In this document: one piece after another, positions 4,959-44,536 of the stretch | How positions within the stretch are numbered: the stretch's first letter is position 1 | Layout: every line of letters begins with the position of its first letter | IMG/VR virus record: IMGVR_UViG_3300025809_001850 | Reading direction: 5' to 3' (one strand) | Length of the DNA stretch: 64,000 bases | From: a virus | Taxonomy: Duplodnaviria > Caudoviricetes | Program-made: the position numbers and the translations under genes | The notes under the pieces: generated by a model | Seen by the model: only the letters and a program-made list of their open reading frames with translations | Told to the model about the DNA's origin: nothing | Database searches by the model: none

Positions 4959-4961
4959 AGC

Positions 4962-6586: not shown

Positions 6587-6587
6587 G

Positions 6588-6854
6588 ATGGATATTGAAG
6601 CAAGAAGTTTAAAGTACGTAGAGTTTCATATGTTTGAAACATTTGGTCCTGTATTTTTAAACCAAATGCAAATAGATGGTTTATGGCATGATGATGAAGG
6701 TCTTCCGAGATACGAATGTGTTGTTGAAAATATTAAAGGTCAAACTGGTACACCAATTAGTTATTTGTTTCCTCCGTTTGATCCTGAGTGTGATCAATAC
6801 GACACCTATAATTTCGGAGAAAACGATGAAGATGAAAAACTTGATGATGATTGA
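6588..6854 (+). CDS. hypothetical acidic protein
   Basis: 88 aa ORF in operon. Confidence 0.6.
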   Translation: MDIEARSLKYVEFHMFETFGPVFLNQMQIDGLWHDDEGLPRYECVVENIKGQTGTPISYLFPPFDPECDQYDTYNFGENDEDEKLDDD

Positions 6855-6885
6855 CATACCAATGGTAATTCTGTAATATAATACA

Positions 6886-7620: not shown

Positions 7621-7823
7621 CCGATTACGACACAGAAAATATAACCGAAATTTTACATGGAACTGGAACTTGGTTTACTGCCGAATTGTTTAGATTGATT
7701 GCAAAATCGGATAATATAAATCGTGCGAAATTAGCACTCGTATATCCACAAGAAGTGAATGTGGTACATCAGCACCTAACAGGCAAAACAATTTACGAAG
7801 ATCGTAATCTTGTTTTATCATAG
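7617..7823 (+). CDS. hypothetical protein
   Basis: ATGA overlap; FT..LFRLIAKSD..N..KL...YP motif. Confidence 0.65.
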   Translation: MTDYDTENITEILHGTGTWFTAELFRLIAKSDNINRAKLALVYPQEVNVVHQHLTGKTIYEDRNLVLS

Positions 7824-7843
7824 AATACAGAAAGACAACGAAC

Positions 7844-8077
7844 ATGAAATTGTTTAAACGCAATAAAAAATATCAACTAGTTACCAAAAACACTTGGGGA
7901 AACACAGAAATCGCAGAATTGGTTCTTGAAGGAACTGAATCAGAAATCAAAGCATATGCAAAAAAAGCATCATTCGCATGGGAAGCAGATGATTCAAAAG
8001 TAGGTGGTGGAAGTTTCACTCGTAGCATTGACGGATATCGTAAACAAACTTACGAAATAATTGAAAAGGTAAACTGA
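7844..8077 (+). CDS. hypothetical protein
   Basis: 77 aa ORF. Confidence 0.6.
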   Translation: MKLFKRNKKYQLVTKNTWGNTEIAELVLEGTESEIKAYAKKASFAWEADDSKVGGGSFTRSIDGYRKQTYEIIEKVN

Positions 8078-8178
8078 TTATCAAGTGATCAAATTGCGAA
8101 TAGAACGACATGATCCTGATTACTCCAAGGACGAACTTGTTAACATTGAAGAAACATTATCAGTAACCGTATAAAAAT

Positions 8179-8514
8179 ATGATATCAGTAAGAATAGAAC
8201 GACACGCAACAAATTATTGTGAAGATGTATTAGACAATTGCCAACACGCAGATTTCTTTTTCAGCAATGGATATTTAGCAACTTGCTATCACAACGAGGA
8301 GCATATGATAACCGAATATTATCAAAAACCAATGGATGTACACTTGTTTGGACCCGACAAAGAAACTGAATTGTGGGAACTTGCCGAAACAAACAAAATT
8401 GCTTACAATGAGTGGTCAGATAAACAAAAAATTGATGAAGAAATGATTACTGATGTTTTAGACTATTATGCACAAGGTGAACTCGTAACCGTAGAAGAAG
8501 ATTTTTATGAATAA
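8179..8514 (+). CDS. hypothetical acidic protein
   Basis: 111 aa ORF. Confidence 0.6.
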   Translation: MISVRIERHATNYCEDVLDNCQHADFFFSNGYLATCYHNEEHMITEYYQKPMDVHLFGPDKETELWELAETNKIAYNEWSDKQKIDEEMITDVLDYYAQGELVTVEEDFYE

Positions 8515-8911
8515 CATGAAATACCTATTGATACTACTATTCGCACTCGGAGGATGTGCAACCACGAAAAATATCCAACACGCCGAGACCTTTGATTTAA
8601 CTCAAATCGGAGAAATTTACTATCAAGCATATGATCATAAATGGAAAACTGATCCAACCATCAATCCTGCATTTGATACCAAATCAGAAGCATATGAATA
8701 TGCTAATATGTACAACGAAAATAATGCTCATATGTACATCGTTAGAATGATCAATTATCGGTATGAGATTCGTATCACAAATCCATCAAACAACGAATTA
8801 CTGTACACTTCCAACGACTTCAAAGATGCAGTTGATTATGTTGACGAATTTAAATCAGCACATGATGACTTGGTGCTTTACGACTTGAAGACCGGTAGAC
8901 AATACGAATAA
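8507..8911 (+). CDS. putative lipoprotein
   Basis: MKYLLILLFALGGC lipobox-like N-terminus. Confidence 0.6.
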   Translation: MNNMKYLLILLFALGGCATTKNIQHAETFDLTQIGEIYYQAYDHKWKTDPTINPAFDTKSEAYEYANMYNENNAHMYIVRMINYRYEIRITNPSNNELLYTSNDFKDAVDYVDEFKSAHDDLVLYDLKTGRQYE

Positions 8912-8914
8912 ACT

Positions 8915-9856
8915 TTAAGAATTAAAGAATTTATTTATTTCATTTTTTAGAAAATCTGTGTTTTCTATTTTTTGAGCATCATCAATATCAAAATCTTCGT
9001 GTGGAATTGTTAATCTGTGCATATTACTTCGTCTGCAACATTTGTTGTATTTGATGTGATCAAAGTAATAATCGTGTTTCATCATTTTTCCTTGTGGATG
9101 TGTCATGGGATGAATCATGTATATCGTGGAATGATTTACAAATGGTTTTGCTGATAAATAAGGTTGAAGCACTACAAACGGATTTGAAGAAGTGTATAAG
9201 TTGTTTACACGGAACGAAAGTTCAGTTTCTGCGTGAGTAGCAATGATACCATTTGCACGACAATTTGAACCATACAATAAACTCGCATACGCATTTTTTC
9301 TGTCACCTATAAACAGAACCCGTGTGTAATTCTCAATGAGTTTTTTGATACGAGCAGAAGTTTCTTTGAAAGTATTTCCAACACCTTCTATTTTATTCAT
9401 AAACCACGCATCGTGTGGATCGGTGATAGTGATGATGTCAACATCAGGATATTTTGACTCAATCGGAATTCTAGAATCAAGTACATTAATTTCACGGGTA
9501 AGCAATCTTTCTTCGGTACTGACATTTAGATAAACTGTAATTTCTTTTAAAGTTTCATCGTAATTTGAAAGATACTTTAAAAGTTCCGGATTCAATTCTT
9601 CGTAATCTTGGTGATAATAATTAGAGTATTCACCTGTGTACCATTCGTTTTCAATTGCTAAATTATAGTTTTCTTTATTTTTTCGTGCATAATCAAGTTT
9701 CAGTTCAGTAATTGCATTATCAATTTGCGTTTTTTCTGTATCAGTATACAACATTTCAGTTTCATTGAAAGTAGTTTCCACCGAATTTTTGAACAGAACA
9801 ATTAAATCTTTTGAGATTCTGCTTTTCTTGAGTTGCAATACATTTACATTTTCCAT
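8915..9856 (-). CDS. hypothetical protein
   Basis: 313 aa ORF; ATATTTAT motif 4 nt upstream of ATG. Confidence 0.7.
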   Translation of the reverse strand: MENVNVLQLKKSRISKDLIVLFKNSVETTFNETEMLYTDTEKTQIDNAITELKLDYARKNKENYNLAIENEWYTGEYSNYYHQDYEELNPELLKYLSNYDETLKEITVYLNVSTEERLLTREINVLDSRIPIESKYPDVDIITITDPHDAWFMNKIEGVGNTFKETSARIKKLIENYTRVLFIGDRKNAYASLLYGSNCRANGIIATHAETELSFRVNNLYTSSNPFVVLQPYLSAKPFVNHSTIYMIHPMTHPQGKMMKHDYYFDHIKYNKCCRRSNMHRLTIPHEDFDIDDAQKIENTDFLKNEINKFFNS

Positions 9857-9932
9857 GTATATAAATATGATTTGTGTTGCAAATCATTCGCAAAGGTATT
9901 ATATTATACATTTAACACAACAAACAAAAACA

Positions 9933-10388
9933 ATGGGATTAGATCAATACGCATACGCACGTCCACCTCGTAAGAGAAATTGTGACGAAGATGAACACTT
10001 AGAAGAATGGCGCAAGCATAATCGTTTGCAAGGCTGGATGGAACAACTATGGGAATCAAAAGGATGTCCTGTTCCTGCTACTTCTTATGACGAAGATGAA
10101 GACGAAGAGGATGAAGACGATTATTCAGATGGTGGTTTCAATGGTATTGAATTACAATTAGATGCTTCTGATATTGAGTATCTTGAAGAAGCAATTCTAA
10201 ATCAAGAACTTCCTGAAACAAGTGGTTTTTTCTTTGGAAGTGATTCATACACTTGGAATAAAGAAGGTGACGGAGAAGATAAAATTCAAGAAAATTATTA
10301 CTACAAAGAAATGGATTTGCAGTTTGTAGAAAACGCAAAACAAGCAATTCAAAAGAAATACAGAGTTTACTATAACTGCTCTTGGTGA
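9933..10388 (+). CDS. conserved phage hypothetical protein
   Basis: MGLDQYAY...WRKHNRLQGWM...YYNCSW pattern, common in phages. Confidence 0.75.
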   Translation: MGLDQYAYARPPRKRNCDEDEHLEEWRKHNRLQGWMEQLWESKGCPVPATSYDEDEDEEDEDDYSDGGFNGIELQLDASDIEYLEEAILNQELPETSGFFFGSDSYTWNKEGDGEDKIQENYYYKEMDLQFVENAKQAIQKKYRVYYNCSW

Positions 10389-10419
10389 GTGTTACTTAAA
10401 AACTGATAACGAATACGAA

Positions 10420-11082
10420 CTATAAAATCATATATTGAACATATTCTTGATTAGGATAATTCTCTAACAAAATATACTTCATTGTCTGAGGTTCTAATAT
10501 CAACCAACCTTGGTTAGTAAACACCAAGTTGACCATGTGTAATCCATTGCTTGCAGGAACTCCACCAAATTCGTTAACTTGACGAACAACTACAACTGCA
10601 ACACCCATTTCGAATTTATCACCACTTTTGTATGCTGATATACCCATAAGTGATTTGTATAACATTGCAAAGTTATCACAATCTAATGCAGGATGATTGT
10701 TTTCTTGACCACTTTGAATCCCTGCTTCAAATAAAAGTTTTTCAAACCAATTATTAAATTTGCGAAAGAAATAGTAATCAACATCACGATAACGAGCATC
10801 AAACAACACAACTCCAAAATCAGTTGGAACTTTAGTATCAACCCAATTATGTGATTTTTGCTGAGAGAAGCTTCTTCCTATGTCAAATCTATCAAGATAA
10901 TTCTTTGGATTAATTTTATGTTCAATGTTTTCTCCTTCCATTACAGGTATATCAATTAACTCACGCATATCAGTTTTTGTTTTGCACGAAGAACCTGCCA
11001 TAAGTACGATGGCAACACCTGCACATACAAACACTAAACAACTCCAACATATATTTTTAAATCTACTCTTACTCATAATCAT
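10420..11082 (-). CDS. putative lipoprotein with papain/transglutaminase-like Cys-His-Glu domain
   Basis: Signal anchor with GSSC; DCDNFA ... HMVN ... ILEPQT motifs. Confidence 0.5.
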   Translation of the reverse strand: MIMSKSRFKNICWSCLVFVCAGVAIVLMAGSSCKTKTDMRELIDIPVMEGENIEHKINPKNYLDRFDIGRSFSQQKSHNWVDTKVPTDFGVVLFDARYRDVDYYFFRKFNNWFEKLLFEAGIQSGQENNHPALDCDNFAMLYKSLMGISAYKSGDKFEMGVAVVVVRQVNEFGGVPASNGLHMVNLVFTNQGWLILEPQTMKYILLENYPNQEYVQYMIL

Positions 11083-11303: not shown

Positions 11304-12557
11304 ATGAAACGCAAACAAAATACCAATACTAATGATACAGGTGATACTGGTGATGCTAATGATGCTAATGATACTGGTGATGCTAATGATGCTAATGATA
11401 TGGACAGTGTAAATCACCCAACACCAAATCCAACCAGAATAGATTCTCAGTTGATTGAAGATGACTCTGACATAATGTCATTGAGTGATGTAAGGGACAC
11501 TCATCAACTACACAAATCAGCAATAAAGCGAGTAATTATAACAGGAGTGACAGGTCAAGACGGAAGTTTTATGGCAGATTATTTGTTGAAAAATACAGAT
11601 TGTATGGTGTATGGAGCAGTTCGTAGACTAAGTGTAAAAAATTACACGAACATTCATCATTTGAAACGAGAAGATCGTTTTCAACTTATCAACTTGGATT
11701 TAACTGATGATTATAGTATTCGTGACGCAATCACCGAAATCAAACCTCATTACTTTTTGAACTTTGCGGCTCAAAGTTTTGTGGATGGTTCTTGGGATTA
11801 TCCAATACAAACTTGGGATACAGATGCAACTGCGGTTTTGCATATGCTTGAAAGTATTCGTAAGTTTACTCCTTATTGTAGATTCTATAACGCAGGATCA
11901 AGTGAAGAATTTGGTGATGTTATTACAGATCCACAGAGTGAAGAACATCCACTTAGACCACAAAGTCCATACGGAGCAGCCAAAGCAGCTGCAAGGCATC
12001 TTGTGCGTGTTTATCGTGAGTCATACGATTTATATGCAGTTCAAGGTTGGTTGTTTAATCACGAAGGAACTCGCAGAGGCAAAGAATTTGTAACAAGAAA
12101 AATTACTCATACAATTGCTAAAATTAAACACGCACTTGAAAAGAATAAAAAATATGATGTATTAAAATTGGGAAATTTAGATGCTCAACGAGATTGGACA
12201 GATGCAGAAGACTTTATGTCGGGAGTATGGTTGATGATGAACCAAGATGCTCCTAAAAATTATGTTCTTGCAAGTGGTAAAATGAATAGTGTTCGTGAAT
12301 TTTTACAAGAAACTTTAAAATGTGCAAACATCAAACATAAAATAATTGGTGACGGTGAATATGAAAAGTTTTTAACCGAAGATGATAAACTCATAATGGA
12401 AGTTGATCCTAAATTTTATCGTCCTGCCGAAGTTCATAAATTAAGAGGAGATTGCACTCTTGCAGAAAACGAACTAGGATGGACTCGCATATACAATTTT
12501 AAGAAACTTGTAAAAAGAATGTACGAAAGTGATTATGAGCAACTTAAAAATAGATAA
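11304..12557 (+). CDS. gmd: GDP-mannose 4,6-dehydratase with acidic low-complexity N-terminal extension
   Basis: ITGVTGQDGS, AAQSFV, AGSSEEFG, PQSPYGAAK, LFNHE, GNLDAQRDW motifs. Confidence 0.95.
   Translation: MKRKQNTNTNDTGDTGDANDANDTGDANDANDMDSVNHPTPNPTRIDSQLIEDDSDIMSLSDVRDTHQLHKSAIKRVIITGVTGQDGSFMADYLLKNTDCMVYGAVRRLSVKNYTNIHHLKREDRFQLINLDLTDDYSIRDAITEIKPHYFLNFAAQSFVDGSWDYPIQTWDTDATAVLHMLESIRKFTPYCRFYNAGSSEEFGDVITDPQSEEHPLRPQSPYGAAKAAARHLVRVYRESYDLYAVQGWLFNHEGTRRGKEFVTRKITHTIAKIKHALEKNKKYDVLKLGNLDAQRDWTDAEDFMSGVWLMMNQDAPKNYVLASGKMNSVREFLQETLKCANIKHKIIGDGEYEKFLTEDDKLIMEVDPKFYRPAEVHKLRGDCTLAENELGWTRIYNFKKLVKRMYESDYEQLKNR
11328..11399 (+). repeat. eight tandem 9-bp units (ACTGGTGAT / GCTAATGAT types)
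   Basis: Encodes TND-TGD-TGD-AND-AND-TGD-AND-AND; contains a 27-bp higher-order repeat twice. Confidence 0.9.
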
Positions 12558-13518
12558 AACTAGCAAAATATACGTCGCAGGATCATCCGGAATGGTCGGT
12601 TCTGCGGTTGTTAGAAAATTGCAAGCAGAAAATTATACTAATATAGTAACATCAAGAAGCAAAGATGTAGATTGTCGTGATCAATTTGTTGTAAATGCTT
12701 TTTTTGCAAAACATAAATTTGATGTGGTTGTAATAGCAGCCGCAAAAGTTGGTGGAATTATGGCAAACAACGATTTTCGTGGTGACTTCATTTATGATAA
12801 TCTTCAAATTCAAACGAATTTAATTCATAGTGCAAAAACACACGGTGTTAAAAAACTGATATTTCTTGGATCATCGTGTATATATCCAAAACAAGCACCA
12901 CAACCAATCAAAGAAGAATATTTATTAACTTCAGAACTTGAATATACAAATGAACCTTATGCTATTGCTAAAATAGCAGGATTAAAAATGTGTGAAAGTT
13001 ATTACAAACAATACGATAGCAACTTTTATTCTATTATGCCTTGTAATTTATATGGATACAATGATAACTTTGATTTAAAATCAAGTCACGTGTTACCTGC
13101 ACTAATTCGTAAGTTTCACGAAGCAAAATTGAACAATGATGCAGAAGTAATAATGTGGGGAACAGGAAAACCAAGACGAGAGTTTATGTTTGTTGATGAT
13201 CTTGCAAACACAATTGAACATTGCATTCAAAGCATAAACGCAGACGATGTTTATACTGACACCAAAAGTTGTATGAACTTTGGAAGTGGTGAAGATATTG
13301 AAATTAAAGAACTTGCCGAATTGATCAAACAAATAGTTGGATTTCGTGGTAACATAAAACACGATACCACCAAACCAGACGGAACAATGAAAAAACTTAT
13401 GGATGTTTCATTTGCAAAAACACTTGGACTAGTTACAAAAACTTCATTGAGTGAAGGTTTAAAAAGCACGTACAATTGGTTTTTGCAAAATTATGCTAAC
13501 TCTGATATAAAACTTTAA
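12535..13518 (+). CDS. fcl: GDP-L-fucose synthase (GDP-4-keto-6-deoxymannose epimerase/reductase)
   Basis: AGSSGMVGSA, AAAKVGGI, FLGSSCIYPK, TNEPYAIAKIAG, MPCNLYG, SHVLPALIRKFH, WGTGKPRREF. Confidence 0.95.
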   Translation: MSNLKIDKTSKIYVAGSSGMVGSAVVRKLQAENYTNIVTSRSKDVDCRDQFVVNAFFAKHKFDVVVIAAAKVGGIMANNDFRGDFIYDNLQIQTNLIHSAKTHGVKKLIFLGSSCIYPKQAPQPIKEEYLLTSELEYTNEPYAIAKIAGLKMCESYYKQYDSNFYSIMPCNLYGYNDNFDLKSSHVLPALIRKFHEAKLNNDAEVIMWGTGKPRREFMFVDDLANTIEHCIQSINADDVYTDTKSCMNFGSGEDIEIKELAELIKQIVGFRGNIKHDTTKPDGTMKKLMDVSFAKTLGLVTKTSLSEGLKSTYNWFLQNYANSDIKL

Positions 13519-13525
13519 TTGCTCA

Positions 13526-14371
13526 ATGATAAAAACTTATACAACCGAATTGTGCGTATTTATGTTGGCCACCTCGTTTGAATGCAATGAAGGAGAACTA
13601 CAACGTGCAGTTGATTATTATTTGGCCAACATTGAAACTGATTCAAAATTTGATCTTTTAATTTGCCTTGATAATCTTCCAAAAAGAATACGAAGATTTG
13701 ATAGTTGGATTAATAATACCAAACGGCACGAAAATGTAAATGATGTAATTGTTAACAATTTAGAGATCCCCAAAGACGAAAATATTTATATCAAAAATTT
13801 AATTCCTTCGTTTGATTTAAGCAAACTTAATATGGGCAGATCACATGGAATCAATCATTTATTTTATGAAACTCTTGAATATCTGTTTACAACTAAATAC
13901 AAAAACTTTTTATTGTTGGAATGTGATACCAAACCAGTTACATCAAAATGGTATGATGTTTGCGTGAATCATTGCAAAACACACGATTTCTCTATAGCAG
14001 GTAGCAAATACAAAGGAGTTAAACGTGATTTTATTTTATCTAGATATTTCGGACCACACCTCAACGGAGTTGCTATATACAGAAACTGTACACGCACACA
14101 ACAAATGCTCAGAGACTCCAAATCGTTTTTAATAAAATCACTTGCAGATGATCACAAGTTACCCAAATCCAGACGTGTATATCGTGAGTTTATGAATTAT
14201 GATGTTGCGATTTATCTTCACTTAAAACGAATGAGATCATACACAGGATATCATGATACTAATTTCATAACCAATATCAGTTCCCCTGGAAACGAGAACA
14301 CTTCATTGCAATCTGTGCTACATGAATTTCCAGATACTCAAATACTGCATCAAAAAAATCTATACGAATAA
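13526..14371 (+). CDS. putative GT-A-like glycosyltransferase
   Basis: LLECD (DxD-like), AGSKYKG, HLNGVAIY, NYDVAIY; paralog of the N-terminal half of 14377..15915; sits in the glycan cluster. Confidence 0.5.
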   Translation: MIKTYTTELCVFMLATSFECNEGELQRAVDYYLANIETDSKFDLLICLDNLPKRIRRFDSWINNTKRHENVNDVIVNNLEIPKDENIYIKNLIPSFDLSKLNMGRSHGINHLFYETLEYLFTTKYKNFLLLECDTKPVTSKWYDVCVNHCKTHDFSIAGSKYKGVKRDFILSRYFGPHLNGVAIYRNCTRTQQMLRDSKSFLIKSLADDHKLPKSRRVYREFMNYDVAIYLHLKRMRSYTGYHDTNFITNISSPGNENTSLQSVLHEFPDTQILHQKNLYE

Positions 14372-14376
14372 TTCAT

Positions 14377-15915
14377 ATGAAGTTCGTTGATAAATTTACT
14401 TATACAAATGAGTTGTGTGTGTTTTATACAACAACACTAACTGAATTTAATAACGGAGCATTAACACGTTGTGTTGATCATTATATGAACAATATTCAAA
14501 CAAACTATAAGTTTGATTTGTTATTTTATTTTGATCAGTTTCCACGCAGGAAACGAAAGTTTTTTCGTGAATTAAATAAATTTAAGAAATACAAAAATAT
14601 AAACAATGTGTACATCATAAACAACGAAATTCCTGATGACGAAAACTTTTATTTCAATCGGAATGTTGAAAAACTAGATTTAAATAAATTTCCCCTTGGA
14701 GGTTCACAAGGAATCAATAGTCACTTTTATATATCAATCAATAATTTGTTTGAACGAAGTTATGAAAATTGTATGTTGTTGGAATCAGACACTTGTTCAG
14801 TAGGCAACGACTGGTTTGATGTGCTTCTTGAGTATTCTGTAAACACAGAGTTTGTAATTGCTGGTAGCAAGTATAAGGGTAGAAACAAAGAAGTTGTATT
14901 TAAAGAACACTACGGTGGCCACCACATAAATGGAGTTGCATTGTATAAAAACAATGATACAACGAAAAAGTTGATCCGAGCATCATATCAATTTTTGATA
15001 AATTCATTGCGAAAGGATTTCACAAAGTGTAAACGTCACAGACGATGTAACGGGTGTTTGAATTATGATGTAGCAATTTACTTGTATGCAAAAAAGAAAA
15101 ATTTATCGCATTTACTTCATGATACAAATTTCATTACAAATTTCAGATCAGATGATGATAATGACACCGAACTAAAAACAATAATGCTAAAGTATCCGGA
15201 AACACGAATTGTACACAAAAAAAATTTATATGATGAAGTTGATATAAAATCAACAATTAAAATATTAAAAGAGAATTCAGTATATAGAATTGCTGATTTA
15301 TTTTATATGGATGGTAACCGATGGGAGAAAGATAGAAGTAAAGTAATACAAAGTGAAGAATATAGTGATACCATATTGCACGATTATATGTTAAATAAAA
15401 ACAATGAATTTGATTACGATACATTTAAATCTATCACCCTAAAACATTCCGAAAAGTATGACCTAAAACCCAACGAAGATGATTTAGTTTTTCATTTACG
15501 ACTCGGAGATGTATTTGATATTAATGGTGAAACTAGAATATACAACAGAGCAGATTGGTCTTATCTTCAGTATAAAGTATTTTTTAGAAAAAACAGAGAA
15601 TTTTTAGAAACATTAAATAAGGTAAAAGTAGTTACTGCATTGCACTTTGGTTCTGATGAGTTAACAGGTGATTTCTATTATACAGATAATTACTATAACG
15701 AAAGCATGAAATTTTTTGATTATTTTTGTGGACGTTTACACGACTTTGGTTGTAGTGTTGATGTAATATCAAATGAAAATATTGATAAAGATATATGCTA
15801 CATGATGCAATCAACACACTTTGTACCTGGACTTACAAAGTTATCTACATTGATTTCAACGTGTATAGAAAATGATGCTAAAATATATCGTGAACCTATA
15901 CAAAAATACATTTAA
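14377..15915 (+). CDS. two-domain glycosyltransferase-like protein (GT-A-like plus GT11/fucosyltransferase-like)
   Basis: N-half: LLESD, AGSKYKG, HINGVALY, NYDVAIY. C-half: FHLRLGD and DKDICYMMQSTHFV, resembling GT11 motifs. Confidence 0.5.
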   Translation: MKFVDKFTYTNELCVFYTTTLTEFNNGALTRCVDHYMNNIQTNYKFDLLFYFDQFPRRKRKFFRELNKFKKYKNINNVYIINNEIPDDENFYFNRNVEKLDLNKFPLGGSQGINSHFYISINNLFERSYENCMLLESDTCSVGNDWFDVLLEYSVNTEFVIAGSKYKGRNKEVVFKEHYGGHHINGVALYKNNDTTKKLIRASYQFLINSLRKDFTKCKRHRRCNGCLNYDVAIYLYAKKKNLSHLLHDTNFITNFRSDDDNDTELKTIMLKYPETRIVHKKNLYDEVDIKSTIKILKENSVYRIADLFYMDGNRWEKDRSKVIQSEEYSDTILHDYMLNKNNEFDYDTFKSITLKHSEKYDLKPNEDDLVFHLRLGDVFDINGETRIYNRADWSYLQYKVFFRKNREFLETLNKVKVVTALHFGSDELTGDFYYTDNYYNESMKFFDYFCGRLHDFGCSVDVISNENIDKDICYMMQSTHFVPGLTKLSTLISTCIENDAKIYREPIQKYI

Positions 15916-15943
15916 CAAAATATATCTTTTAATTTTACATACA

Positions 15944-16804
15944 ATGAAACCATTACACCAACAACAAAATATTCCGTGCTTTTATCATGTTCCAAAGAAC
16001 GCAGGAACATATGTAACAAGCATCATGTTTTTGTATATTAGATTATTTAAACAAAAGTATACAAACTGGAATTCATTTGGTAAAGAAACTGGTAGAAATA
16101 TCGTAATACATAACGATAATAAAGAAATCGCACGAATAATCGCAGGTGATCCAAATTTTATATGCAATGAAAGTTTAATATTCAAACGAGGTGTAATTGA
16201 AGATGATACACATTATACAATCAATTTAAATGAATGTTCACATGATGCATTTGTTAACCTGAATATTTTTTCAATAATTATAGAAGCAGACGGATTTGTA
16301 TATCACGATCAAATCAAAAAGTTTTTTGAAAAATATAATTTAATTAATTTTATGATATTACGTGATCCGATTAAACGAGCAGTATCTTTTTTTGATTACA
16401 TAAATTCAGATAAAGCAAAACACGAACCAACTTACGGAATTATTCCAAATAAATTTTCAGAATATGCTAAAAGTGATTACACAGAAGATAGTTGGTTGAT
16501 ACGACAATTCAGCAAAGTGCAAAATTCTGTGGGAATTACTTTAAAAAATTATGTAGATGCATTTCACATTTTAAAAAAATTTAAGATATGTGACATCAAA
16601 AACACAAATAAATTTATAGATGATATATTCAAAAAATATCTGAATCTGAATTTAACAGAAAAACAAAAACAACAAAAAACTTGGGACATAATTTACAATT
16701 CTAAATCAAAAAGTTCTACAATAATTGACGAAGAATCACACAAACTATTGCAACAAAGAATGAAATACGATATTGAATTATACAACAAATTGTTATCATG
16801 CTAA
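15944..16804 (+). CDS. sulfotransferase-like protein (Sulfotransfer_2-like)
   Basis: HVPKNAGT (5'-PSB) and LRDPIKRAVSFFDY (3'-PB) PAPS-binding motifs. Confidence 0.7.
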   Translation: MKPLHQQQNIPCFYHVPKNAGTYVTSIMFLYIRLFKQKYTNWNSFGKETGRNIVIHNDNKEIARIIAGDPNFICNESLIFKRGVIEDDTHYTINLNECSHDAFVNLNIFSIIIEADGFVYHDQIKKFFEKYNLINFMILRDPIKRAVSFFDYINSDKAKHEPTYGIIPNKFSEYAKSDYTEDSWLIRQFSKVQNSVGITLKNYVDAFHILKKFKICDIKNTNKFIDDIFKKYLNLNLTEKQKQQKTWDIIYNSKSKSSTIIDEESHKLLQQRMKYDIELYNKLLSC

Positions 16805-16965
16805 TATCACACAAACATAAGTTCATCACATTTGATATTCCAAAGACTGGAACAACCTCTATTAACAATGCTATTGCTCGGGGTGATATTTTGGAAAAGC
16901 ATGATTTTAAAGTTCAGATGTCACACAGAGTCATTGAGTATTTCGGATATAAATTTGGAGCATAA
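16798..16965 (+). pseudogene. sulfotransferase head-to-tail deletion mini-gene (55 aa)
   Basis: MLISHKHKFITFDIPKTGTTS...IEYFGYKFGA: family N-terminus joined almost directly to family C-terminus. Confidence 0.75.
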
Positions 16966-16968
16966 GAA

Positions 16969-17520
16969 ATGATAAGTCATAAACATAAATTCATATTACT
17001 ACACGCAGGTAAGTGTGCGGGAAGTTCGGTCATAAATTGTCTTAATAATATTATCGATGAACCTAAAATTGAACTTCCTTGCAATCATCCAACTTTGTTA
17101 CAACTTCAGGAACTTGTTACAAAATCTAATCATAACATAAACGAGTATAAGTTAATTTGTATGGTGAGAAATCCATTTGATAGAATGGTTTCATGGTATA
17201 ATCATGCGGTGTATAGAGTTAAAACATTCTCCGGTTCATTTGAAGATTTTTGTGATGACAGACTTAGTGGTACATCCGAAAACTTAATACCCCCCTATAA
17301 CAAATGCAATCATGTTATTCGGTTTGAACATTTACACGATGATTTTGATAAATTTCTTGATATTATAGGTCTTCCTGCTCATAAATTACCCCACGAAAAT
17401 AAAAGTATGAGTAAACAAAAAATTCATTACTCAGTCTTACATACAGAAAAAACGAAACAAATTGTATCTGAGTATTTTTCGTCAGTTATTGAAATGTTCA
17501 ACTATAAGTTTGGGGAATAA
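16969..17520 (+). CDS. sulfotransferase family 2 protein
   Basis: MISHKHKF..HAGKCAGSS, VRNPFDRMVSWY, IRFEHL, C-terminal FNYKFGE. Confidence 0.85.
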   Translation: MISHKHKFILLHAGKCAGSSVINCLNNIIDEPKIELPCNHPTLLQLQELVTKSNHNINEYKLICMVRNPFDRMVSWYNHAVYRVKTFSGSFEDFCDDRLSGTSENLIPPYNKCNHVIRFEHLHDDFDKFLDIIGLPAHKLPHENKSMSKQKIHYSVLHTEKTKQIVSEYFSSVIEMFNYKFGE

Positions 17521-17522
17521 AA

Positions 17523-18173
17523 ATGCTAATATCACACAAACATAAATTCATCACAATTGATATTCCAAAAACTGCTACAAGGTCTTTGCGTGAAACTTTA
17601 TTGCCACAAAATGTAATTGATATTGTAGGTGATCCAAATTTTAATGCAGATTTTTACCAACATGGAACTGCAATGCAATGTTCTGAATCGTTGCAAAAAT
17701 TAAATAAAAACTTTTCAGATTATTTTTCATTTGTTATTGTTCGCAATCCGTGGGATCGGTATTATAGTTTTTTTAAATACTTTAAAGAATATGCGGAAAA
17801 ATATAAAAACAAAGACGCAAGTATAAAATGGAATACACTTGAAATTACTCAAGGTAAACTGTGCGAAGAATTATTCGCGAATAAATCAGATGAAATTGTA
17901 TTGCGAAACATCATAATAAATAATGAATGTCAAAGTGGTTATTATGCAAATGAAAAAAATGAAATTATGGTATCTCATATAGCAAAATTTGAAAATCTAA
18001 ACAAAGAATTTGAATTGCTATGCAATCAAGTAAATGTAAATTATTCACCGTTATTCCACGGAAATAAAAGTGTTATAAAAAGTAGTTATTATAATATTTA
18101 TACCAAGGAAACTATCAATTTAGTCGCAGAAAAAGAAAAGAATGTAATACAATTAAAAGGATACACATATTAA
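17523..18173 (+). CDS. sulfotransferase family 2 protein
   Basis: MLISHKHKF..DIPKTATRS, VRNPWDRYYSFF, KFENL. Confidence 0.85.
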   Translation: MLISHKHKFITIDIPKTATRSLRETLLPQNVIDIVGDPNFNADFYQHGTAMQCSESLQKLNKNFSDYFSFVIVRNPWDRYYSFFKYFKEYAEKYKNKDASIKWNTLEITQGKLCEELFANKSDEIVLRNIIINNECQSGYYANEKNEIMVSHIAKFENLNKEFELLCNQVNVNYSPLFHGNKSVIKSSYYNIYTKETINLVAEKEKNVIQLKGYTY

Positions 18174-18920
18174 ATGAAAATTTACACTTACTATCAGAAT
18201 ATAAATCACGATAAACAACCTGAATTAATTGATTTATGGAAACTAAGTTGGTCTCGACAAGGTTACGAACCAATTGTTCTAAATTTAGAAGATGCAAAAA
18301 AGCATTCTTATTTTGAAACTCTTGATACAGAAATGCGTAAAATTTTCAAAGAAATTACAAACAAGGAAATTTCTGATTACGGAATGAGTTGTTGGTTTCG
18401 TTGGTTGGCATATGCAACCCAAGAAGACGAAAAGTTTTATGTTTCTGATTATGATGCAATCAATATTAATTTTCCAATCACAGAACCTAGCAATCAACTT
18501 CATTTAATGGATAATGCTTGTCCCTTTCTTGCAAGTGGAACACCAAAACAATTTGAAAATTTATGCAAAGCATTTGTGGAACTTAGCAATCAAAGAATTG
18601 ATATTTTAAAACAACAAGCAGATCATTATCATGATCAAGAATTTTTTCAATATAATTTTATTCCAAATTTTAATGATTCGTATGAAGATCTAAGAAATCA
18701 ACATGGCATTTTAATGACACGAACTAGATCACACGAAGGTGGAATTGGGGATTGGTATCTTCCCAATGATAAAAAAAATCCAAGTCCAACAACTTATGGA
18801 GTTTATCATGTTTCTCACAGTAATTGTAGCGTATACAAAACCACAAATACACAAGATAGTTCACTTTCGGCCGAAGAACTCAGAATTTATTTAATAAAAG
18901 ATTTACTTAAAATAAAATGA
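18174..18920 (+). CDS. putative glycosyltransferase-like protein, duplicate copy A
   Basis: WKLSW..QGYEP, CWFRWLAY, SDYD (DxD-like); context in the glycan cluster. Confidence 0.5.
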   Translation: MKIYTYYQNINHDKQPELIDLWKLSWSRQGYEPIVLNLEDAKKHSYFETLDTEMRKIFKEITNKEISDYGMSCWFRWLAYATQEDEKFYVSDYDAININFPITEPSNQLHLMDNACPFLASGTPKQFENLCKAFVELSNQRIDILKQQADHYHDQEFFQYNFIPNFNDSYEDLRNQHGILMTRTRSHEGGIGDWYLPNDKKNPSPTTYGVYHVSHSNCSVYKTTNTQDSSLSAEELRIYLIKDLLKIK

Positions 18921-19389
18921 AAATTTACACTTACTATCAGAATATAAATCACGATAAACAACCTGAATTAATTGATTTATGGAAACTAAGTTGGTCTCGA
19001 CAAGGTTACGAACCAATTGTTCTAAATTTAGAAGATGCAAAAAAGCATTCTTATTTTGAAACTCTTGATACAGAAATGCGTAAAATTTTCAAAGAAATTA
19101 CAAACAAGGAAATTTCTGATTACGGAATGAGTTGTTGGTTTCGTTGGTTGGCATATGCAACCCAAGAAGACGAAAAGTTTTATGTTTCTGATTATGATGC
19201 AATCAATATTAATTTTCCAATCACAGAACCTAGCAATCAACTTCATTTAATGGATGCCCATGTACCATGTTTTGCAAGTGGATCACCAAAGCAATTTGAA
19301 AATTTATGCAAAGCATTTGTGGAACTTAGCAATCAAAGAATTGATATTTTAAAACAACAAGCAGATCATTATCATGATCAAGAATTTTT
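18174..19389 (+). repeat. direct repeat with 743-bp period
   Basis: 18174-18512 = 18917-19255 (339 bp identical) and 18549-18646 = 19292-19389 (98 bp identical). Confidence 0.95.
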
Positions 19390-19564
19390 CTTGTACAACT
19401 CGGAGGAATTAAAGAATCATCACAATATCGTTATGACACGTGATAGAAATAAATTATTATCACCATACATTAAGGATTGTTTGACTCCGATTATTCACTT
19501 TAGCCATTTTAGGTGTAAAACTAACTCTAATAGAATAAAATTAATTAAGGAAATCTTATCATGA
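18917..19564 (+). CDS. putative glycosyltransferase-like protein, duplicate copy B
   Basis: First 113 codons identical to copy A; different C-terminus. Confidence 0.5.
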   Translation: MKIYTYYQNINHDKQPELIDLWKLSWSRQGYEPIVLNLEDAKKHSYFETLDTEMRKIFKEITNKEISDYGMSCWFRWLAYATQEDEKFYVSDYDAININFPITEPSNQLHLMDAHVPCFASGSPKQFENLCKAFVELSNQRIDILKQQADHYHDQEFFLYNSEELKNHHNIVMTRDRNKLLSPYIKDCLTPIIHFSHFRCKTNSNRIKLIKEILS

Positions 19565-20139
19565 TACTATCACACAAATATAAATTCGTCTGCCTAAATC
19601 CACCAAAAACTGGATCAGGATTTAGAGAACAACTATTAAAGGAATGTGCTGATGTAAGCATAATCACACATGAACCTTTAAAACTAAGACATTGGAATTC
19701 AACTCAAGCATCCAACTACATTAAAAGTATAAACAAAGACCCCAATGATTATTATTGGTTTACTTTTGTTAGAAATCCGTGGGAACGAATGATATCTTGG
19801 GTTAATATGAGAAAAAATCATATATTAAATGGTAAAAATTCGGAAAATATTGATAGTAACAAGTTTATTGTTGAAACCCTTGAAGAACATCAGTTTAAAG
19901 ATTACATATATCGTGATGGTAAACTATTAGAGTTTATTGGTTCACTTGAAAACATCACAGAAGATCTTAATTTTGTGTTAAACAAATTAAATATTAATAT
20001 ACCTATTAGCACTCGAAAAGATAAATATAAAAAAGATTTTAAAGATGATATTCGTGACAACATGAGTCGGAAAACAATAGAACTAATTAGCAATGTAGAA
20101 AAAGAAGTTATAGAAATGAAAAAGTATAAATTTAAATGA
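19561..20139 (+). CDS. sulfotransferase family 2 protein
   Basis: MILSHKYKF..NPPKTGS, FVRNPWERMISW, IGSLENI. Confidence 0.85.
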   Translation: MILSHKYKFVCLNPPKTGSGFREQLLKECADVSIITHEPLKLRHWNSTQASNYIKSINKDPNDYYWFTFVRNPWERMISWVNMRKNHILNGKNSENIDSNKFIVETLEEHQFKDYIYRDGKLLEFIGSLENITEDLNFVLNKLNINIPISTRKDKYKKDFKDDIRDNMSRKTIELISNVEKEVIEMKKYKFK

Positions 20140-20789
20140 TTAACATAAATGCATACAACTACCACTTTTCTATTGGTTCTAATTGTCGTGTGGCCACTTC
20201 TTTGATCGAATTGAATTTGAGAAAATTTTCAACTAATTTTGATTGGGGATTTTTCACTCCAAAAAGTTTTTACTTAGCATATATAGACAATTTTCAAGAG
20301 TTAATCAATTTCTCTCACAACAAATTGTCTCAAAGTGAAAATACATATCAACATATTATTGACAACTGGATTTCAAAATACAATTTTAAACCTTATATGT
20401 TTAGATTTGCACATCGTTCTCATAAAAACGAAGATACCGTAAGAAGACGAGCAATTAGATTAAAAGATACCATTGAAAATGGTAACAATAAAATATTGTT
20501 CATATATAATCATATACCAATACACCTCATGAGTGACAGAGCTCATAAAAAATGGTCAAACAAACTCCTCAAAGAAGAAGGGGAAGATATTTTTGACTTA
20601 AAATATTTACAATTATTAAAAGACGTATTACCCGACAATGTAGATCTCTTGTTATTGCATTATGAAGAATTGAATATGAAATTTAAAAATGTGTATTGTC
20701 AATTTATAAATTATGAAGAATCCGAAGTGAAACATAAAGACTGGGATCAACAGTTAATTATTAAACACATTAAATCGCTTTTAAATTAA
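20136..20789 (+). CDS. DUF1796-like putative papain-like protein
   Basis: SIGSNC...L...LRKFSTNFDW ... FAH ... RRAIRL pattern. Confidence 0.6.
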   Translation: MININAYNYHFSIGSNCRVATSLIELNLRKFSTNFDWGFFTPKSFYLAYIDNFQELINFSHNKLSQSENTYQHIIDNWISKYNFKPYMFRFAHRSHKNEDTVRRRAIRLKDTIENGNNKILFIYNHIPIHLMSDRAHKKWSNKLLKEEGEDIFDLKYLQLLKDVLPDNVDLLLLHYEELNMKFKNVYCQFINYEESEVKHKDWDQQLIIKHIKSLLN

Positions 20790-20824
20790 AAAATATGCTT
20801 TCTTAAAGAACGAAAAAAACAAAA

Positions 20825-21535
20825 ATGAAAAAGAGGCCAAAAAATACAGACGATTGTTTATACAACTTAGTGGATATAATAAAATTTAACCATTGTGCTT
20901 GTATGGATGTGTGGAAAGAGGACAGTATAGCGAGAATGTATTATGAACAATCATCAAGTCCCAAGAAGAACTTTAACTCCTCATGGTGGGTGGATTTTGA
21001 TTGTTTACATAAAATTGTTCAAGAAAAAACTAAAAATAACGAACAGCCGTCGGGTGATGTATTAACAATACACGTAAGACTTGGTGATTTATTAGTACCT
21101 TCCTTGATACATACAGTTCCTGATGTTAACCAATATGAAAATTTAATCAAGAGAGCTGTTGTAGAACACGGTATTGTCAAATGCGATATTTATTACGGTA
21201 ATCATGTGGGTAAGTTTGAAAATGAGTCGCAACAATACATACACAAATTAATAAAAATTATTAAAAAATTAGGTCTTGAACATGAATTTATATCCAAATC
21301 GGTAGATGAAGATTTTTGTTCTTTGGCTACAAGCAAACACTACCTGCCCTCTATCAGAGGATTTTCGTGGTTGACTGGTACAATCAATCCGAATAATGTT
21401 ATTTGGGACATAAACAAAGGTAAAGAGTTTTCTTGGGATGTAGTTGCAAAAACTGGAAGATTCGTAACTGAAAATGTTGGTAAATACCTTAAAGGAATTG
21501 AGTATCAACGAAAATTAAATAAACAAAAAAAATAA
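20825..21535 (+). CDS. GT11/alpha-1,2-fucosyltransferase-like protein
   Basis: IHVRLGD and DEDFCSLATSKHYLPSIRGFSW resemble GT11 motifs (HVRRGD; DL.LMS.C.H.I...STFSW). Confidence 0.5.
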   Translation: MKKRPKNTDDCLYNLVDIIKFNHCACMDVWKEDSIARMYYEQSSSPKKNFNSSWWVDFDCLHKIVQEKTKNNEQPSGDVLTIHVRLGDLLVPSLIHTVPDVNQYENLIKRAVVEHGIVKCDIYYGNHVGKFENESQQYIHKLIKIIKKLGLEHEFISKSVDEDFCSLATSKHYLPSIRGFSWLTGTINPNNVIWDINKGKEFSWDVVAKTGRFVTENVGKYLKGIEYQRKLNKQKK

Positions 21536-21603
21536 TGAAAAACATCACAAACCTTGCCCAGTGGATGGTGTACAAAAGACCATAGTATGGAAGGATATTG
21601 AAT

Positions 21604-22203
21604 ATGATAAGTCATAAACATAAATTTATTTTCATACACATTAATAAAACAGGTGGATCAAGCATTGAGAGGGCCATTGACCCGAGTATTCCTACGCACA
21701 ACAATAAAACTAACCGAGTCTGCCCGAGCGCAACTGTTGGTAACACATATCACGAGACTAAACATTTCCCAGCTAGGAAAATGTGGGCGAACCACCCGGA
21801 TTGTTTTGACCTGTATTTTAAATTTACATTCGTAAGAAACCCGTGGGCTACAGAAGCATCACTTTACAATTGGTTCAAGTTTATTGGAGTTGCCAGAGGT
21901 ACTAAACTCTCATTTAAAGAGTTTTTATATCAGAGAGTTAAGTTAAAAAGAATGGGATTTAGAATAATGTTAGGTAATAGCAAACAATATTCTCTTATGG
22001 ATTACATCGGGCGGTTTGAAAACCTACAAGAAGACTTCAACATAATCTGTGACAAAATTGGAATTCCACAACAACAACTTCCACACAAAAACAAAATAAA
22101 ACACAAACATTACACCGAATACTACGATGATGAAACTCGTCAAATTGTTGCGGAAAAGTATGCAGAAGACATCGAGTATTTCGGGTATAAATTTGGAGAA
22201 TAA
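21604..22203 (+). CDS. sulfotransferase family 2 protein
   Basis: MISHKHKF..HINKTGGSS, FVRNPW, IGRFENL, HYTEYYD...IEYFGYKFGE. Confidence 0.88.
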   Translation: MISHKHKFIFIHINKTGGSSIERAIDPSIPTHNNKTNRVCPSATVGNTYHETKHFPARKMWANHPDCFDLYFKFTFVRNPWATEASLYNWFKFIGVARGTKLSFKEFLYQRVKLKRMGFRIMLGNSKQYSLMDYIGRFENLQEDFNIICDKIGIPQQQLPHKNKIKHKHYTEYYDDETRQIVAEKYAEDIEYFGYKFGE

Positions 22204-22206
22204 ATT

Positions 22207-22872
22207 ATGAAAAAGTATTACGGACAAAAAGGACAAGATAAATGGGTTATTAACGAAGTGTTGAACGAGAAAAAAAACGGATTCTTTTTAGATCTAGCTG
22301 CAACAAATGGGATTGAACTTAGTAATACATTTATTTTGGAAAAAAAATATAACTGGACTGGAATTGCAATAGAACCCAATCCAAATTTTTACAAACAATT
22401 AGTTAAAAATAGAAATTGTATTACAGAAAATCATGTGGTTTCCAATTGTCATGAAAAGGTTAAAGTTAGAATTGATAACGGTGTCGGTGGTGGAATTGTA
22501 GCAGACGATACAGATAATTCTATGTTAATTCGTGGAGAACAATTAAAGAAGGAGCAATGTAAAATTATAGAGATGGAATCAGTTTTGCTACAAGATATCC
22601 TTGATAAACATAACGCTCCGAAAGAAATAGATTATTGGTCACTCGACATCGAAGGTTCAGAAGAAAGAGTGATTAGTAGTTTTGATTTCTCCAAGTATGA
22701 GTTTGGATGCATAACAATAGAAAGGCCAACACCTCTCTGTAACAAAATACTACAAAATGCAGGATATGTGTTTGTTAAGAATTGTGATAATGATTCCTTC
22801 TATGTGTCTCATAAATACTCAAAGGACTTAAAATTACAACCTTTTGAGCAGATACCCAAAAAAAGGTGCTAA
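22207..22872 (+). CDS. FkbM-family SAM-dependent methyltransferase
   Basis: [38 protein letters not shown]. Confidence 0.85.
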
Positions 22873-22888
22873 ACTTATAGAACAACAC

Positions 22889-23008
22889 ATGATAATATCA
22901 CATAAACATAAACACTACACCGAATATTACGATGAAGAAACAAAATCTATCGTTGCGGAAAAATACGCAAAAGACATTGAGTATTTTAATTATGAATTTG
23001 GTAAGTAA
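22889..23008 (+). pseudogene. sulfotransferase head-to-tail deletion mini-gene (39 aa)
   Basis: MIISHKHK fused to [31 protein letters not shown]. Confidence 0.8.
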
Positions 23009-43664: not shown

Positions 43665-43850
43665 ATGGGAAATGAAGTTGTTGTAACACGAATTAAGAAA
43701 CGAGCTTACGAACTACGTCACAGAAGACGGGAAGGATTTGATGACAAGCATTTAGATTCAAAGTGTATTATACACGAAATAAAGTTTTTATTTCTGATGC
43801 TAAGTGAAACTGAGAAAAGTGATATATTAAATCAACCATGGCTAGATTAA
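43665..43850 (+). CDS. small hypothetical protein
   Basis: 61 aa; ATATTTAT 4 nt upstream. Confidence 0.55.
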   Translation: MGNEVVVTRIKKRAYELRHRRREGFDDKHLDSKCIIHEIKFLFLMLSETEKSDILNQPWLD

Positions 43851-44536
43851 TAAATTACATATTTGATGTAGACGGAACTCTTACTCCAAGTAGATTAAAA
43901 ATGGATAACGAGTTTGAAATTTTTTTTAGGAAATGGATTTCTGATAAAAATGTATATCTATTAACTGGATCTGATCACGATAAAACTATTGAACAAGTTG
44001 GCGTTGATGTATGGAGAGAAGTTACTGAATCTCATCAATGTGGTGGAAATGTAGTTTATAAACGTGGGGATTTGATTGAAGTGAGTAAATGGGAACCGTC
44101 TAAAAAGTTACTTGATAGATGCCAAGAACTTATAGATGATTCTTCGTATGAAATTCGCACACAGAACCACTTAGAGGTACGGGTTGGTCTTTTGAACATA
44201 AGTGTGGTGGGAAGGGATTGTACCCAGGAACAACGAGAAGCATATTATGAGTGGGATAAAGTAAACAAAGACAGAGAACACATTTGTAATGTATTAAATA
44301 AAGAATTTCCAAACCTAGAGTCAAGTGCAGGTGGTCAAATTAGCATTGATATTCATCAACGAGGAAGAAACAAATCTCAAATCCGTGGGAAAATAAAAGG
44401 AGATATTTGGTTTTTTGGTGATAAAACAATGGAAGGTGGAAACGATTATCCAATTGCAAATATACTTGAAGAACCTGATAAAGTTTTCCAAGTAGACGAT
44501 TGGGAACATACATATAAGTTGTTAAAAGAGATTTAA
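43838..44536 (+). CDS. eukaryote-type phosphomannomutase (HAD IIB)
   Basis: FDVDGTLT, LTGSD, LLNISVVGR, GGQISIDI, FFGDKT.EGGNDY. Confidence 0.8.
   Translation: MARLINYIFDVDGTLTPSRLKMDNEFEIFFRKWISDKNVYLLTGSDHDKTIEQVGVDVWREVTESHQCGGNVVYKRGDLIEVSKWEPSKKLLDRCQELIDDSSYEIRTQNHLEVRVGLLNISVVGRDCTQEQREAYYEWDKVNKDREHICNVLNKEFPNLESSAGGQISIDIHQRGRNKSQIRGKIKGDIWFFGDKTMEGGNDYPIANILEEPDKVFQVDDWEHTYKLLKEI

Follow-up and report, generated by a model that had tools for sequence, protein, structure and literature searches.

The 64,000-nt stretch of the viral record IMGVR_UViG_3300025809_001850 (Duplodnaviria; Caudoviricetes), to which we refer as the window, carries at positions 11304-22872 an island of 15 co-oriented open reading frames (ORFs) on the + strand, separated by intergenic gaps of -44 to +62 nt. 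An initial annotation of this 11.7-kb block had proposed a phage-encoded pathway for a sulfated, methylated and fucose-containing glycan. ORF layout together with family and fold searches established that the claimed gene content is real, and that functions for GDP-L-fucose synthesis, glycosyltransferases (GTs), fucosyltransferase-like proteins, sulfotransferases and an O-methyltransferase are combined in a single operon-like array. The island is not an assembly artefact, as it is matched at 99.9-100% identity by the independent assemblies L004, L005 and L006 and is present, by at least half of the sampled island words, in 10 marine runs, each of which contained 88-99% of these words (8 of these 10 runs are flagged as possible sources of the window DNA). 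At least part of the island is present in 20 runs from 16 studies.

The island starts with gmd (11304..12557), encoding a GDP-mannose 4,6-dehydratase of 417 amino acids (aa) that covers the Pfam profile PF16363 (GDP_Man_Dehyd) from position 1 to 332 of 332 (E = 1.6e-102; 343.8 bits at a cut-off of 27). With TIGR01472, the best match by more than 200 bits, the protein scored 325.7 bits (3.5e-97), which is under the strict cut-off of 415 of this model. The domain begins at residue ~77, so that either the protein is extended at its N-terminus or its true start lies further downstream. The following gene, fcl (12529..13518), very likely encodes a divergent GDP-L-fucose synthase (3,5-epimerase/4-reductase), judging from matches to Pfam Epimerase (2.5e-61) and to NCBIfam NF047922 over positions 2-306 of 308 (8.5e-136; 452.4 bits vs an equivalog cut-off of 500), with the next-best NCBIfam model at 70 bits. 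By these full-length profile matches the predicted gmd-fcl pair is clear. A gene for a phosphomannomutase (PMM) of the eukaryotic type, likewise predicted at the outset, was identified further downstream on the same strand (43838..44536; PF03332, 3.8e-28), and it is possible that its product feeds the GDP-mannose supply. PMM is followed by a gene for a HAD-IIIC/FkbH-like phosphatase (44539-44970; PF12689, 1.4e-9) and by a small cytidylyl/adenylyltransferase-like gene (44970-45413; PF01467, 1.6e-12), for which glycerol-3-phosphate cytidylyltransferase and RfaE domain II are the best models; these genes may represent a second activated-sugar or polyol branch.

Next to fcl, two genes encode GT-A-like domains. 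The 281-aa protein of the first (13526..14371) is 44% identical (E = 1e-79) to residues 8-286 of the 512-aa product of the second (14377..15915), a two-domain transferase predicted to consist of a GT8-like GT-A domain and a fucosyltransferase-like domain. The latter protein was modelled by AF2 using 18 homologues. The model has a pLDDT of 76, with values >90 across most of residues 10-290, and residues 6-289 form a GT-A fold that is nearest to those of GT8 enzymes. Foldseek searches of the PDB with this N-domain returned LARGE1, GlyE, XXYLT1 and glycogenin at 1e-7 to 1e-5 (best 1.3e-7), and structural comparison by VIA yielded a Z of 14.9 to LARGE1 (rmsd 3.5 over 225 residues) and of 13.5 to the GT8 protein 3tzt. 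In AFDB, the domain matched a cluster named 'Glycosyltransferase' (1.5e-19; TM 0.82), and GT8 clusters of the Atlas were matched as well. Pfam searches with the 13526 protein and the 14377 N-domain gave nothing even at E 10, and PHROG was likewise silent for these and for the other GT-like ORFs. At the position of the DxD motif there is ExD, E136-x-D138 (LLESDT/LLECDT), which is nearly invariant in the family. Thus, the GT-A-like character claimed for the two domains holds, since the fold superposes on solved GT8 enzymes; according to the model they are GT8-like by fold, and hence of the retaining type, a designation that stops short of demonstrated GT8 membership.

The C-terminal half of the 14377 protein and a stand-alone, short fucosyltransferase-like protein of 236 aa encoded at 20825..21535 are paralogous (25% identity, E = 9e-7), and both contain an HxRxGD motif (FHLRLGD in 14377, IHVRLGD in 20825). 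In sequence order, 20825 displays IHVRLGD ... DEDF ... RGFSWL and 14377 FHLRLGD ... DKDI; we take HxRxGD and the downstream acidic and (S/G)FS(W) motifs to correspond to the motifs of GT11. The 20825 family comprises about 96 cluster representatives, mostly of 200-260 aa, and among 73 of its members residues H83, R85, G87, D88, D161 and D163 show a conservation of at least 90% or no variation at all. In 14377, residues ~300-509 are modelled as a Rossmann domain, and in AFDB they match an 'O-fucosyltransferase family protein' over its C-terminal half (4.5e-8); the pLDDT of this C-domain is about 70-80 with disordered loops, and PF01531 is present in 90 of the 100 named Atlas clusters nearest to it. 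The 20825 protein scored 0.96 in the Atlas to a PF01531-bearing cluster. A profile of the 20825 family produced chance-level matches only among PDB sequences, and tblastn of 20825 against GenBank phages gave no match. PF01531 was also not detected in the genomes of five relatives, a search that was uninformative as control genomes were silent too. In summary, we designate the 14377 C-domain and 20825 as fucosyltransferase-like proteins of the GT11 superfamily and not as GT11 members.

The remaining two GT-like genes are arranged in tandem: 18174..18920, encoding a probable GT32/GT34-type GT-A glycosyltransferase of 248 aa, and its paralogue 18917..19564 (215 aa). The first 339 nt (113 aa) of the two genes are 100% identical and constitute a perfect direct repeat (18174-18512 and 18917-19255), and the C-termini have diverged. 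An assembly error was considered as the source of the repeat and rejected, since no fewer than six independent assemblies contain the two copies. The arrangement fits a recent duplication or gene conversion by which the donor-binding half was kept and the acceptor half was varied. Across 30 sequences an FYVSDYD motif is invariant, with D92-Y93-D94 located behind a hydrophobic strand, and more than 329 close relatives show that the 18174 family is abundant in marine metagenomes. Atlas features of 18174 gave 0.93 for Gb3_synth and 0.91 for Gly_transf_sug, an Atlas shape search reached a TM of 0.55 to a Gly_transf_sug/Caps_synth cluster, and the top ~35 VIA matches were nearly all GT-A enzymes, the best being XXT1 (Z 7.8). 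By contrast with this neighbour list, profile-based support for a GT-A identity is lacking: Pfam did not match 18174, 18917 or 10 distant relatives, and the family profile found chance-level matches only among PDB sequences. Foldseek with the 18174 model gave nothing below E 0.07, hhalign detected no relation of the family to the GT8-like family, and tblastn against GenBank phages found no match. On balance, we regard both proteins as probable GT-A enzymes.

Five genes of the island encode sulfotransferases: a divergent one of 310 aa (15872..16804) and four shorter ones of 183 aa (16969..17520), 216 aa (17523..18173), 192 aa (19561..20139) and 201 aa (21598..22203, with a TTG start, or ATG at 21604). 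Scores for Sulfotransfer_2 (PF03567; cut-off 22) were 46.5 bits for 16969 (6.7e-12; also Sulfotransfer_1 at 1.3e-5), 36.1 for 17523 (9.7e-9), 30.4 for 19561 (5.4e-7) and 50.4 for 21598 (4.4e-13). The divergent protein 15872 remained 0.9 bit below the cut-off (21.1 bits, 3.9e-4); it has the PKNAGT loop and the RDPxxRxxS motif in common with the other four as well as homologues in relatives, and an alternative start at 15944 removes the 44-nt overlap with the preceding gene. An alignment of the five sequences revealed invariant residues K15 (PKxxG/S loop), R67, P69 and S75 (R-x-P...S). Presumably, the loop lysine (PKxGxS/T) binds the 5'-phosphosulfate and the arginine and serine residues of RxPxxRxxS bind the 3'-phosphate of 3'-phosphoadenosine 5'-phosphosulfate (PAPS). 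Thus, the five predicted PAPS-dependent sulfotransferases are borne out, four by the Pfam threshold and all five by intact motifs. Judging by family habit and gene neighbourhood, their acceptor is presumably a carbohydrate. The last gene of the island (22207..22872) encodes the expected FkbM-family methyltransferase of 221 aa, which is over the gathering score of PF05050 (9.5e-14; 52.3 bits, cut-off 22.7) and matches TIGR01444 at 6.8e-9 (36.3 vs 37.7). A small ORF of 55 aa between the first two sulfotransferase genes (16798..16965) is called in all metagenome copies (L003-L008).

Sulfotransferases depend on a donor, and, as noted initially, no PAPS-synthesis genes are present among the window ORFs scanned; this profile scan, to which all such statements on the window refer, covered about 50 of the larger ORFs and was not exhaustive. 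The initial annotation had suggested a search of the genome for cysC and cysDN. Walking upstream in 10-kb steps through contigs that encode exactly identical proteins, we found all three genes on the same phage contig, together with a gene for a GalE-like epimerase, at about -75.6 kb from the window: cysC (L046:9404-9985; APS_kinase, PF01583), cysD (L046:10001-10906; PAPS_reduct family, PF01507) and cysN (L046:10908-12245; GTP_EFTU and GTP-eEF1A_C). CysD is encoded on the JGI contig Ga0209196_1000001 (260,986 bp), which matches window positions 1-11077 at 100%. Because cysC-cysD-cysN share this contig with the window, the phage is predicted from its gene content to encode its own PAPS synthesis. 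A PAPS reductase was not found among the called genes ~10 kb to either side of cysCDN, the rest of the genome not having been searched. Upstream of cysC are located an unannotated 199-aa ORF, a subtilase gene and the gene for a protein with EKTPTPTTGSFY tandem repeats. The latter, a DUF6174 protein of 619 aa (L046:5593-7452), is encoded two genes upstream of cysC, at a distance of ~78-80 kb from the start of the window, and has the subtilase and a 1934-aa protein on its flanks. The EKTPTPTTGSFY tract is mucin-like (Thr/Pro with Tyr) and, by its composition, a candidate acceptor for glycosylation or sulfation. In L027, L028 and L029, the relatives with the most sulfotransferases, matches to APS_kinase were rejected as indicators of PAPS synthesis: they are 283-aa P-loop kinases that cover half of the APS_kinase profile (~48 bits) and match the phage CysC only weakly (E ~3e-7), and no CysD or CysN was found in the ~3-kb loci fetched around them. 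CysD was found in none of five relatives from IMG/VR (0/5), and therefore PAPS of the host would be needed in these smaller relatives.

Comparison to related loci revealed that the island is modular. A cassette of 5.6 kb (15967-21577), which has the gene of the divergent sulfotransferase at one end and that of the stand-alone, short fucosyltransferase-like protein at the other, is 98.6% identical at the nucleotide level to L003:4890-10500, whereas the flanks in L003 are 80-90% identical; this difference indicates, at the level of the sequences, a recent cassette exchange between diverged phages. L003 does not possess the module consisting of gmd, fcl, the GT8-like gene and the GT8-like/fucosyltransferase-like gene, and the last sulfotransferase and FkbM genes are swapped for divergent versions. 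Also within the cassette resides a gene for a 217-aa DUF1796 protein (20136..20789; PF08795, 3.5e-5, 24.1 bits vs a cut-off of 23), a family described as 'putative papain-like peptidase', and a second copy is present in the variant locus (L003:10477-11094); its conserved place among transferases suggests a glycan-related role beyond the Pfam name. In 16 of 17 IMG/VR relatives an 18174-family gene is located near sulfotransferase genes, which it directly abuts in most loci, and some 20-kb loci contain seven or eight sulfotransferases. Between 1 and 9 Sulfotransfer_2 matches were obtained in each of five IMG/VR relatives (5/5), three of which (3/5) have a full-length gmd beside an fcl-like gene. 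A search of IMG/VR with the 14377 protein found no relative, megablast of the whole island against GenBank phages gave no match, and among 50,697 GenBank phage records that of Stenotrophomonas phage DLP6 is the only one with a protein homologous to one of the island's sulfotransferases. Searches of the open literature retrieved no description of a sulfated-glycan pathway in a phage. The chemistry of the island is undescribed for any cultured phage, and sulfation is its new element. The tandem GT duplication with its divergent C-terminus and the cassette exchange together suggest diversifying selection on the glycan structure.

With regard to the product, a fucosylated, sulfated and methylated glycan is well supported by the predicted functions of the genes. 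The initial annotation had gone further in proposing a polymerising, 'fucoidan-like' pathway, and this part is not supported by more than the joint occurrence of fucose and sulfate chemistry: only two of the six GT domains are fucosyltransferase-like, and nothing indicates a fucan backbone or processivity. The occurrence of six GT domains of three types rather suggests a hetero-oligosaccharide than a fucose polymer. We propose that the island represents a modular glycan-building and -tailoring system for a sulfated, methylated and fucose-containing oligosaccharide which is most likely attached to a virion protein, and to this reading we assign a probability of roughly 0.55. In this scheme, the infecting phage would supply its own GDP-fucose and PAPS, with Gmd and Fcl converting GDP-mannose into GDP-L-fucose. 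The six transferase domains would then build a short hetero-oligosaccharide of fucose and hexose or xylose on the acceptor in the cytoplasm, followed by O-sulfation at several positions by the sulfotransferases and O-methylation by the FkbM enzyme. If the acceptor is a structural protein of the phage, sulfated glycoprotein virions would result.

Cytoplasmic assembly is suggested by what the island does not encode. None of its proteins has a membrane segment (no 19-residue window with a mean Kyte-Doolittle hydropathy >1.4), and no Pfam family of a priming phosphoglycosyltransferase, flippase or ABC transporter, polymerase or exporter was identified among them. Hence, the island lacks the membrane proteins of a lipid-carrier (Wzx/Wzy or ABC) pathway for surface polysaccharides. 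As all enzymes are soluble and export functions are missing, a phage protein would be the most economical acceptor. Within the overall explanation, our analysis puts this target at slightly less than even odds; it would match the precedents of chloroviruses and mycobacteriophages. That this phage and its wider lineage, in which a genome can encode as many as nine sulfotransferases, coat their virion proteins with a self-made, multiply sulfated and O-methylated glycan containing fucose is a more tentative proposal. It may be speculated that such a coat acts as receptor bait, as camouflage or in superinfection exclusion.

Several observations weigh against the proposed virion glycosylation or against individual enzyme assignments on which it draws. 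The GT-A assignment of 18174 and 18917 draws on the near-pure list of GT-A neighbours, but in addition to the missing profile match the AF2 model of 18174 is poor (pLDDT 58), and all structural matches are below Z 8. Similarly, the claim of two GT11-like HxRxGD domains keeps the support from motif, fold and language model, whereas the Pfam GT11 threshold and a full-size GT-B architecture are not reached: neither 14377 nor 20825 matches PF01531, Pfam GT11 matches were obtained for 2 of 73 members of the 20825 family (best 3.6e-4), and at ~210-240 aa these proteins are shorter than canonical GT-B fucosyltransferases, so that the N-terminal acceptor domain would have to be reduced. A mannose-1-phosphate guanylyltransferase was not found among the window ORFs scanned. 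PHROG provided no structural annotation for the large neighbouring proteins (L001, L046), among which an acceptor might have been sought; moreover, no RNA runs holding the island are listed. Finally, marine T4-like pelagimyophages and cyanomyophages possess hypervariable, non-syntenic GT islands (termed 'host recognition cluster' or LPS-like) with sugar-nucleotide genes, in which GT8 is the commonest family, and those of pelagimyophages have been interpreted as modifying the O-chain of the host (PMC7029224).

The same reading might apply here, that is, the enzymes could modify host envelope glycans such as the O-chain of lipopolysaccharide, capsule, S-layer or pilus at the cytoplasmic face before export by the host. 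Once re-decorated, the infected cell would be resistant to superinfection or would leave released progeny untrapped. Bacteria are generally known to have sulfated and fucosylated glycans on their surface, and the hypervariability and cassette exchange of the island would be expected for receptor-related traits. However, lacking any membrane protein, priming enzyme, flippase, polymerase and exporter, the system would be fully dependent on the host machinery. In addition, cysDNC and ~15 or more tailoring genes would be a costly investment of a lytic jumbo phage in a short-lived change of the cell surface, and no matching host glycan can be named. We consider modification of the host envelope to be the main rival, although less likely than virion glycosylation.

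Among known systems, the Nod factor pathway of Sinorhizobium/Rhizobium sp. NGR234 is the closest chemical analogue, a likeness that refers to the chemical steps and not to sequence orthology. In this pathway, the methyltransferase NoeI belongs to the FkbM family and NodPQ supplies PAPS. Going by the predicted functions of the phage genes, both systems comprise PMM, GDP-mannose dehydratase and GDP-fucose synthase, an HxRxGD-type fucosyltransferase, sugar O-methylation, O-sulfation with PAPS as donor and a dedicated, reductase-free PAPS supply of the CysDN/CysC type. In NGR234, nolK-noeL-nodZ-noeK/noeJ mediate fucosylation, noeI methylates the fucose and noeE is responsible for sulfation (PMC4881576). 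Unlike the phage island, the Nod system is bacterial and encoded on a symbiosis plasmid, acts on a lipochitooligosaccharide and has a single sulfotransferase and a full-size GT23 enzyme, NodZ; the phage, in turn, has five sulfotransferases, four extra GT-A domains and short fucosyltransferase-like proteins. Since a free lipo-oligosaccharide is the substrate of Nod-factor tailoring by NodZ, NoeI, NoeE and NodPQ, and since every enzyme of the island is soluble, the product might also be a free, soluble sulfated or methylated fucosylated oligosaccharide or small molecule, serving as signal, osmolyte or decoy set free at lysis. The island has, however, no chitin-oligomer synthase or other scaffold synthase, and the six GT domains suggest that an existing macromolecular acceptor is used, which renders a free product improbable.

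Among biological analogues, chlorovirus capsid glycosylation and the GT-rich islands of T4-like phages from the sea come closest. In PBCV-1, the GDP-mannose dehydratase (GMD) A118R, the GMER protein A295L, A064R and other cytosolic GTs build fucosylated and O-methylated capsid glycans, bypassing the ER/Golgi and the lipid-carrier route of the host. Virus-made GDP-fucose, soluble GT-A enzymes and a methyltransferase, as predicted for the present phage, are thus common to the two systems, and A64R of PBCV-1 is a structural neighbour of each of the two GT-A types considered here, a similarity at the level of the fold only (Z 5.9-11.1). PBCV-1 differs from the present phage in infecting eukaryotic algae, and it is not known to have sulfation or PAPS genes. 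Mycobacteriophages similarly decorate their own capsid and tail proteins by phage-encoded cytoplasmic GTs; these systems differ in comprising one to four GTs, in host-supplied donors, in the lack of sulfation and methylation, and in their actinobacterial hosts. With the pelagimyophages the present phage shares a marine T4-like, low-GC genome and a GT-rich island. However, the pelagimyophage islands are located among tail-fibre genes, whereas the present one resides between small unknown ORFs and the DHFR gene, and the respective study mentions neither sulfotransferases nor fucose (0 occurrences; PMC7029224). With contigs of 261-493 kb, the present phage also greatly exceeds the pelagimyophages in size, and it is predicted to synthesise PAPS by itself.

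As to its affiliation, the window (GC ~33%) carries the T4-like markers RIIA, RIIB and a family-B DNA polymerase (PolB), the nearest cultured relative of which is that of Microcystis phage Mel-JY01 at an identity of only 47%. Exact copies of window proteins are encoded on metagenome contigs of 260,986, 358,699 and up to 492,783 bp. The source is an uncultured, widespread marine T4-like jumbo phage. For a T4-like phage it has to be considered that the island may hypermodify the phage DNA, with sugars being placed on hydroxymethyl-pyrimidines and subsequently tailored, cf. T4 glucosylation or RB69-type arabinosylation; the DHFR gene directly 3' of the island (23490) and several DNA methylase genes in the window could be seen in line with this. 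However, GDP-fucose, five sulfotransferases and an O-methyltransferase are, as far as is generally known, without precedent in DNA modification, the DNA glucosyltransferases of T4 belong to the GT-B type and have no relation to the GT-A and fucosyltransferase-like folds found here, and no hydroxymethylase was found in the island. We thus regard DNA modification as the least probable of the alternatives. With respect to expression, a sigma-70 promoter scan was uninformative (80 sites observed vs 84 expected), and the + strand upstream of the island does not contain the late motif of T4, TATAAATA.

The initial annotation had raised a marine Verrucomicrobium, from a group that includes fucoidan specialists, as a possible host. 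A weak clue to the host is provided by a PSCyt2/PSD1 and DUF1501 gene pair in the phage genome (L040:3580-7020, ~22-25 kb upstream of the window start), which we take to be typical of Planctomycetota and Verrucomicrobiota. On sequence grounds this pair is the sole pointer to a host of the Planctomycetota-Verrucomicrobiota-Chlamydiota (PVC) type. An attempt to identify the host from the DUF1501 gene failed, as the best match in a cellular genome, that of the planctomycete Roseimaritima, is only 37% identical; an 88% match in a metagenome-assembled genome labelled as Flavobacteriaceae was set aside as a probably mis-binned phage contig. Elsewhere in the window are located genes for DnaJ (35980-37041), DnaK (41641-43572) and ClpP (at 35017), as well as nagB (at 6886). 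Two tandem full-length Glu/Leu/Phe/Val dehydrogenase genes (37510-40210, - strand; 456 and 445 aa) adjoin dnaJ and are near dnaK. This load of metabolic and chaperone genes is unusual for a phage. About 3.5 kb before the start of the window, the phage encodes a trans-type polyprenyl diphosphate synthase (PF00348; L038:5941-6897).

Marine T4-like phages are known to carry glycan islands, of which little is understood, and sulfation has so far been absent from that picture. If the virion coat proposed here is real, it would be the first sulfated glycoconjugate from a virus of bacteria, and it would imply that viral cysC, cysD and cysN, which are usually read as auxiliary genes for sulfur assimilation, can supply the donor for sulfation. 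An active pathway would introduce a strongly anionic glycan chemistry of the algal or animal type into phage biology, with consequences for how strongly virions adhere to marine gels and to particles rich in fucoidan, for the masking of receptors and for the grazing or decay of virions. The compact, soluble sulfotransferases (180-310 aa) and the short fucosyltransferase-like enzymes would, if active, also be of possible use in glycan engineering. Likewise, cassette exchange and tandem GT duplication would then constitute a natural system for the diversification of a glycan code.

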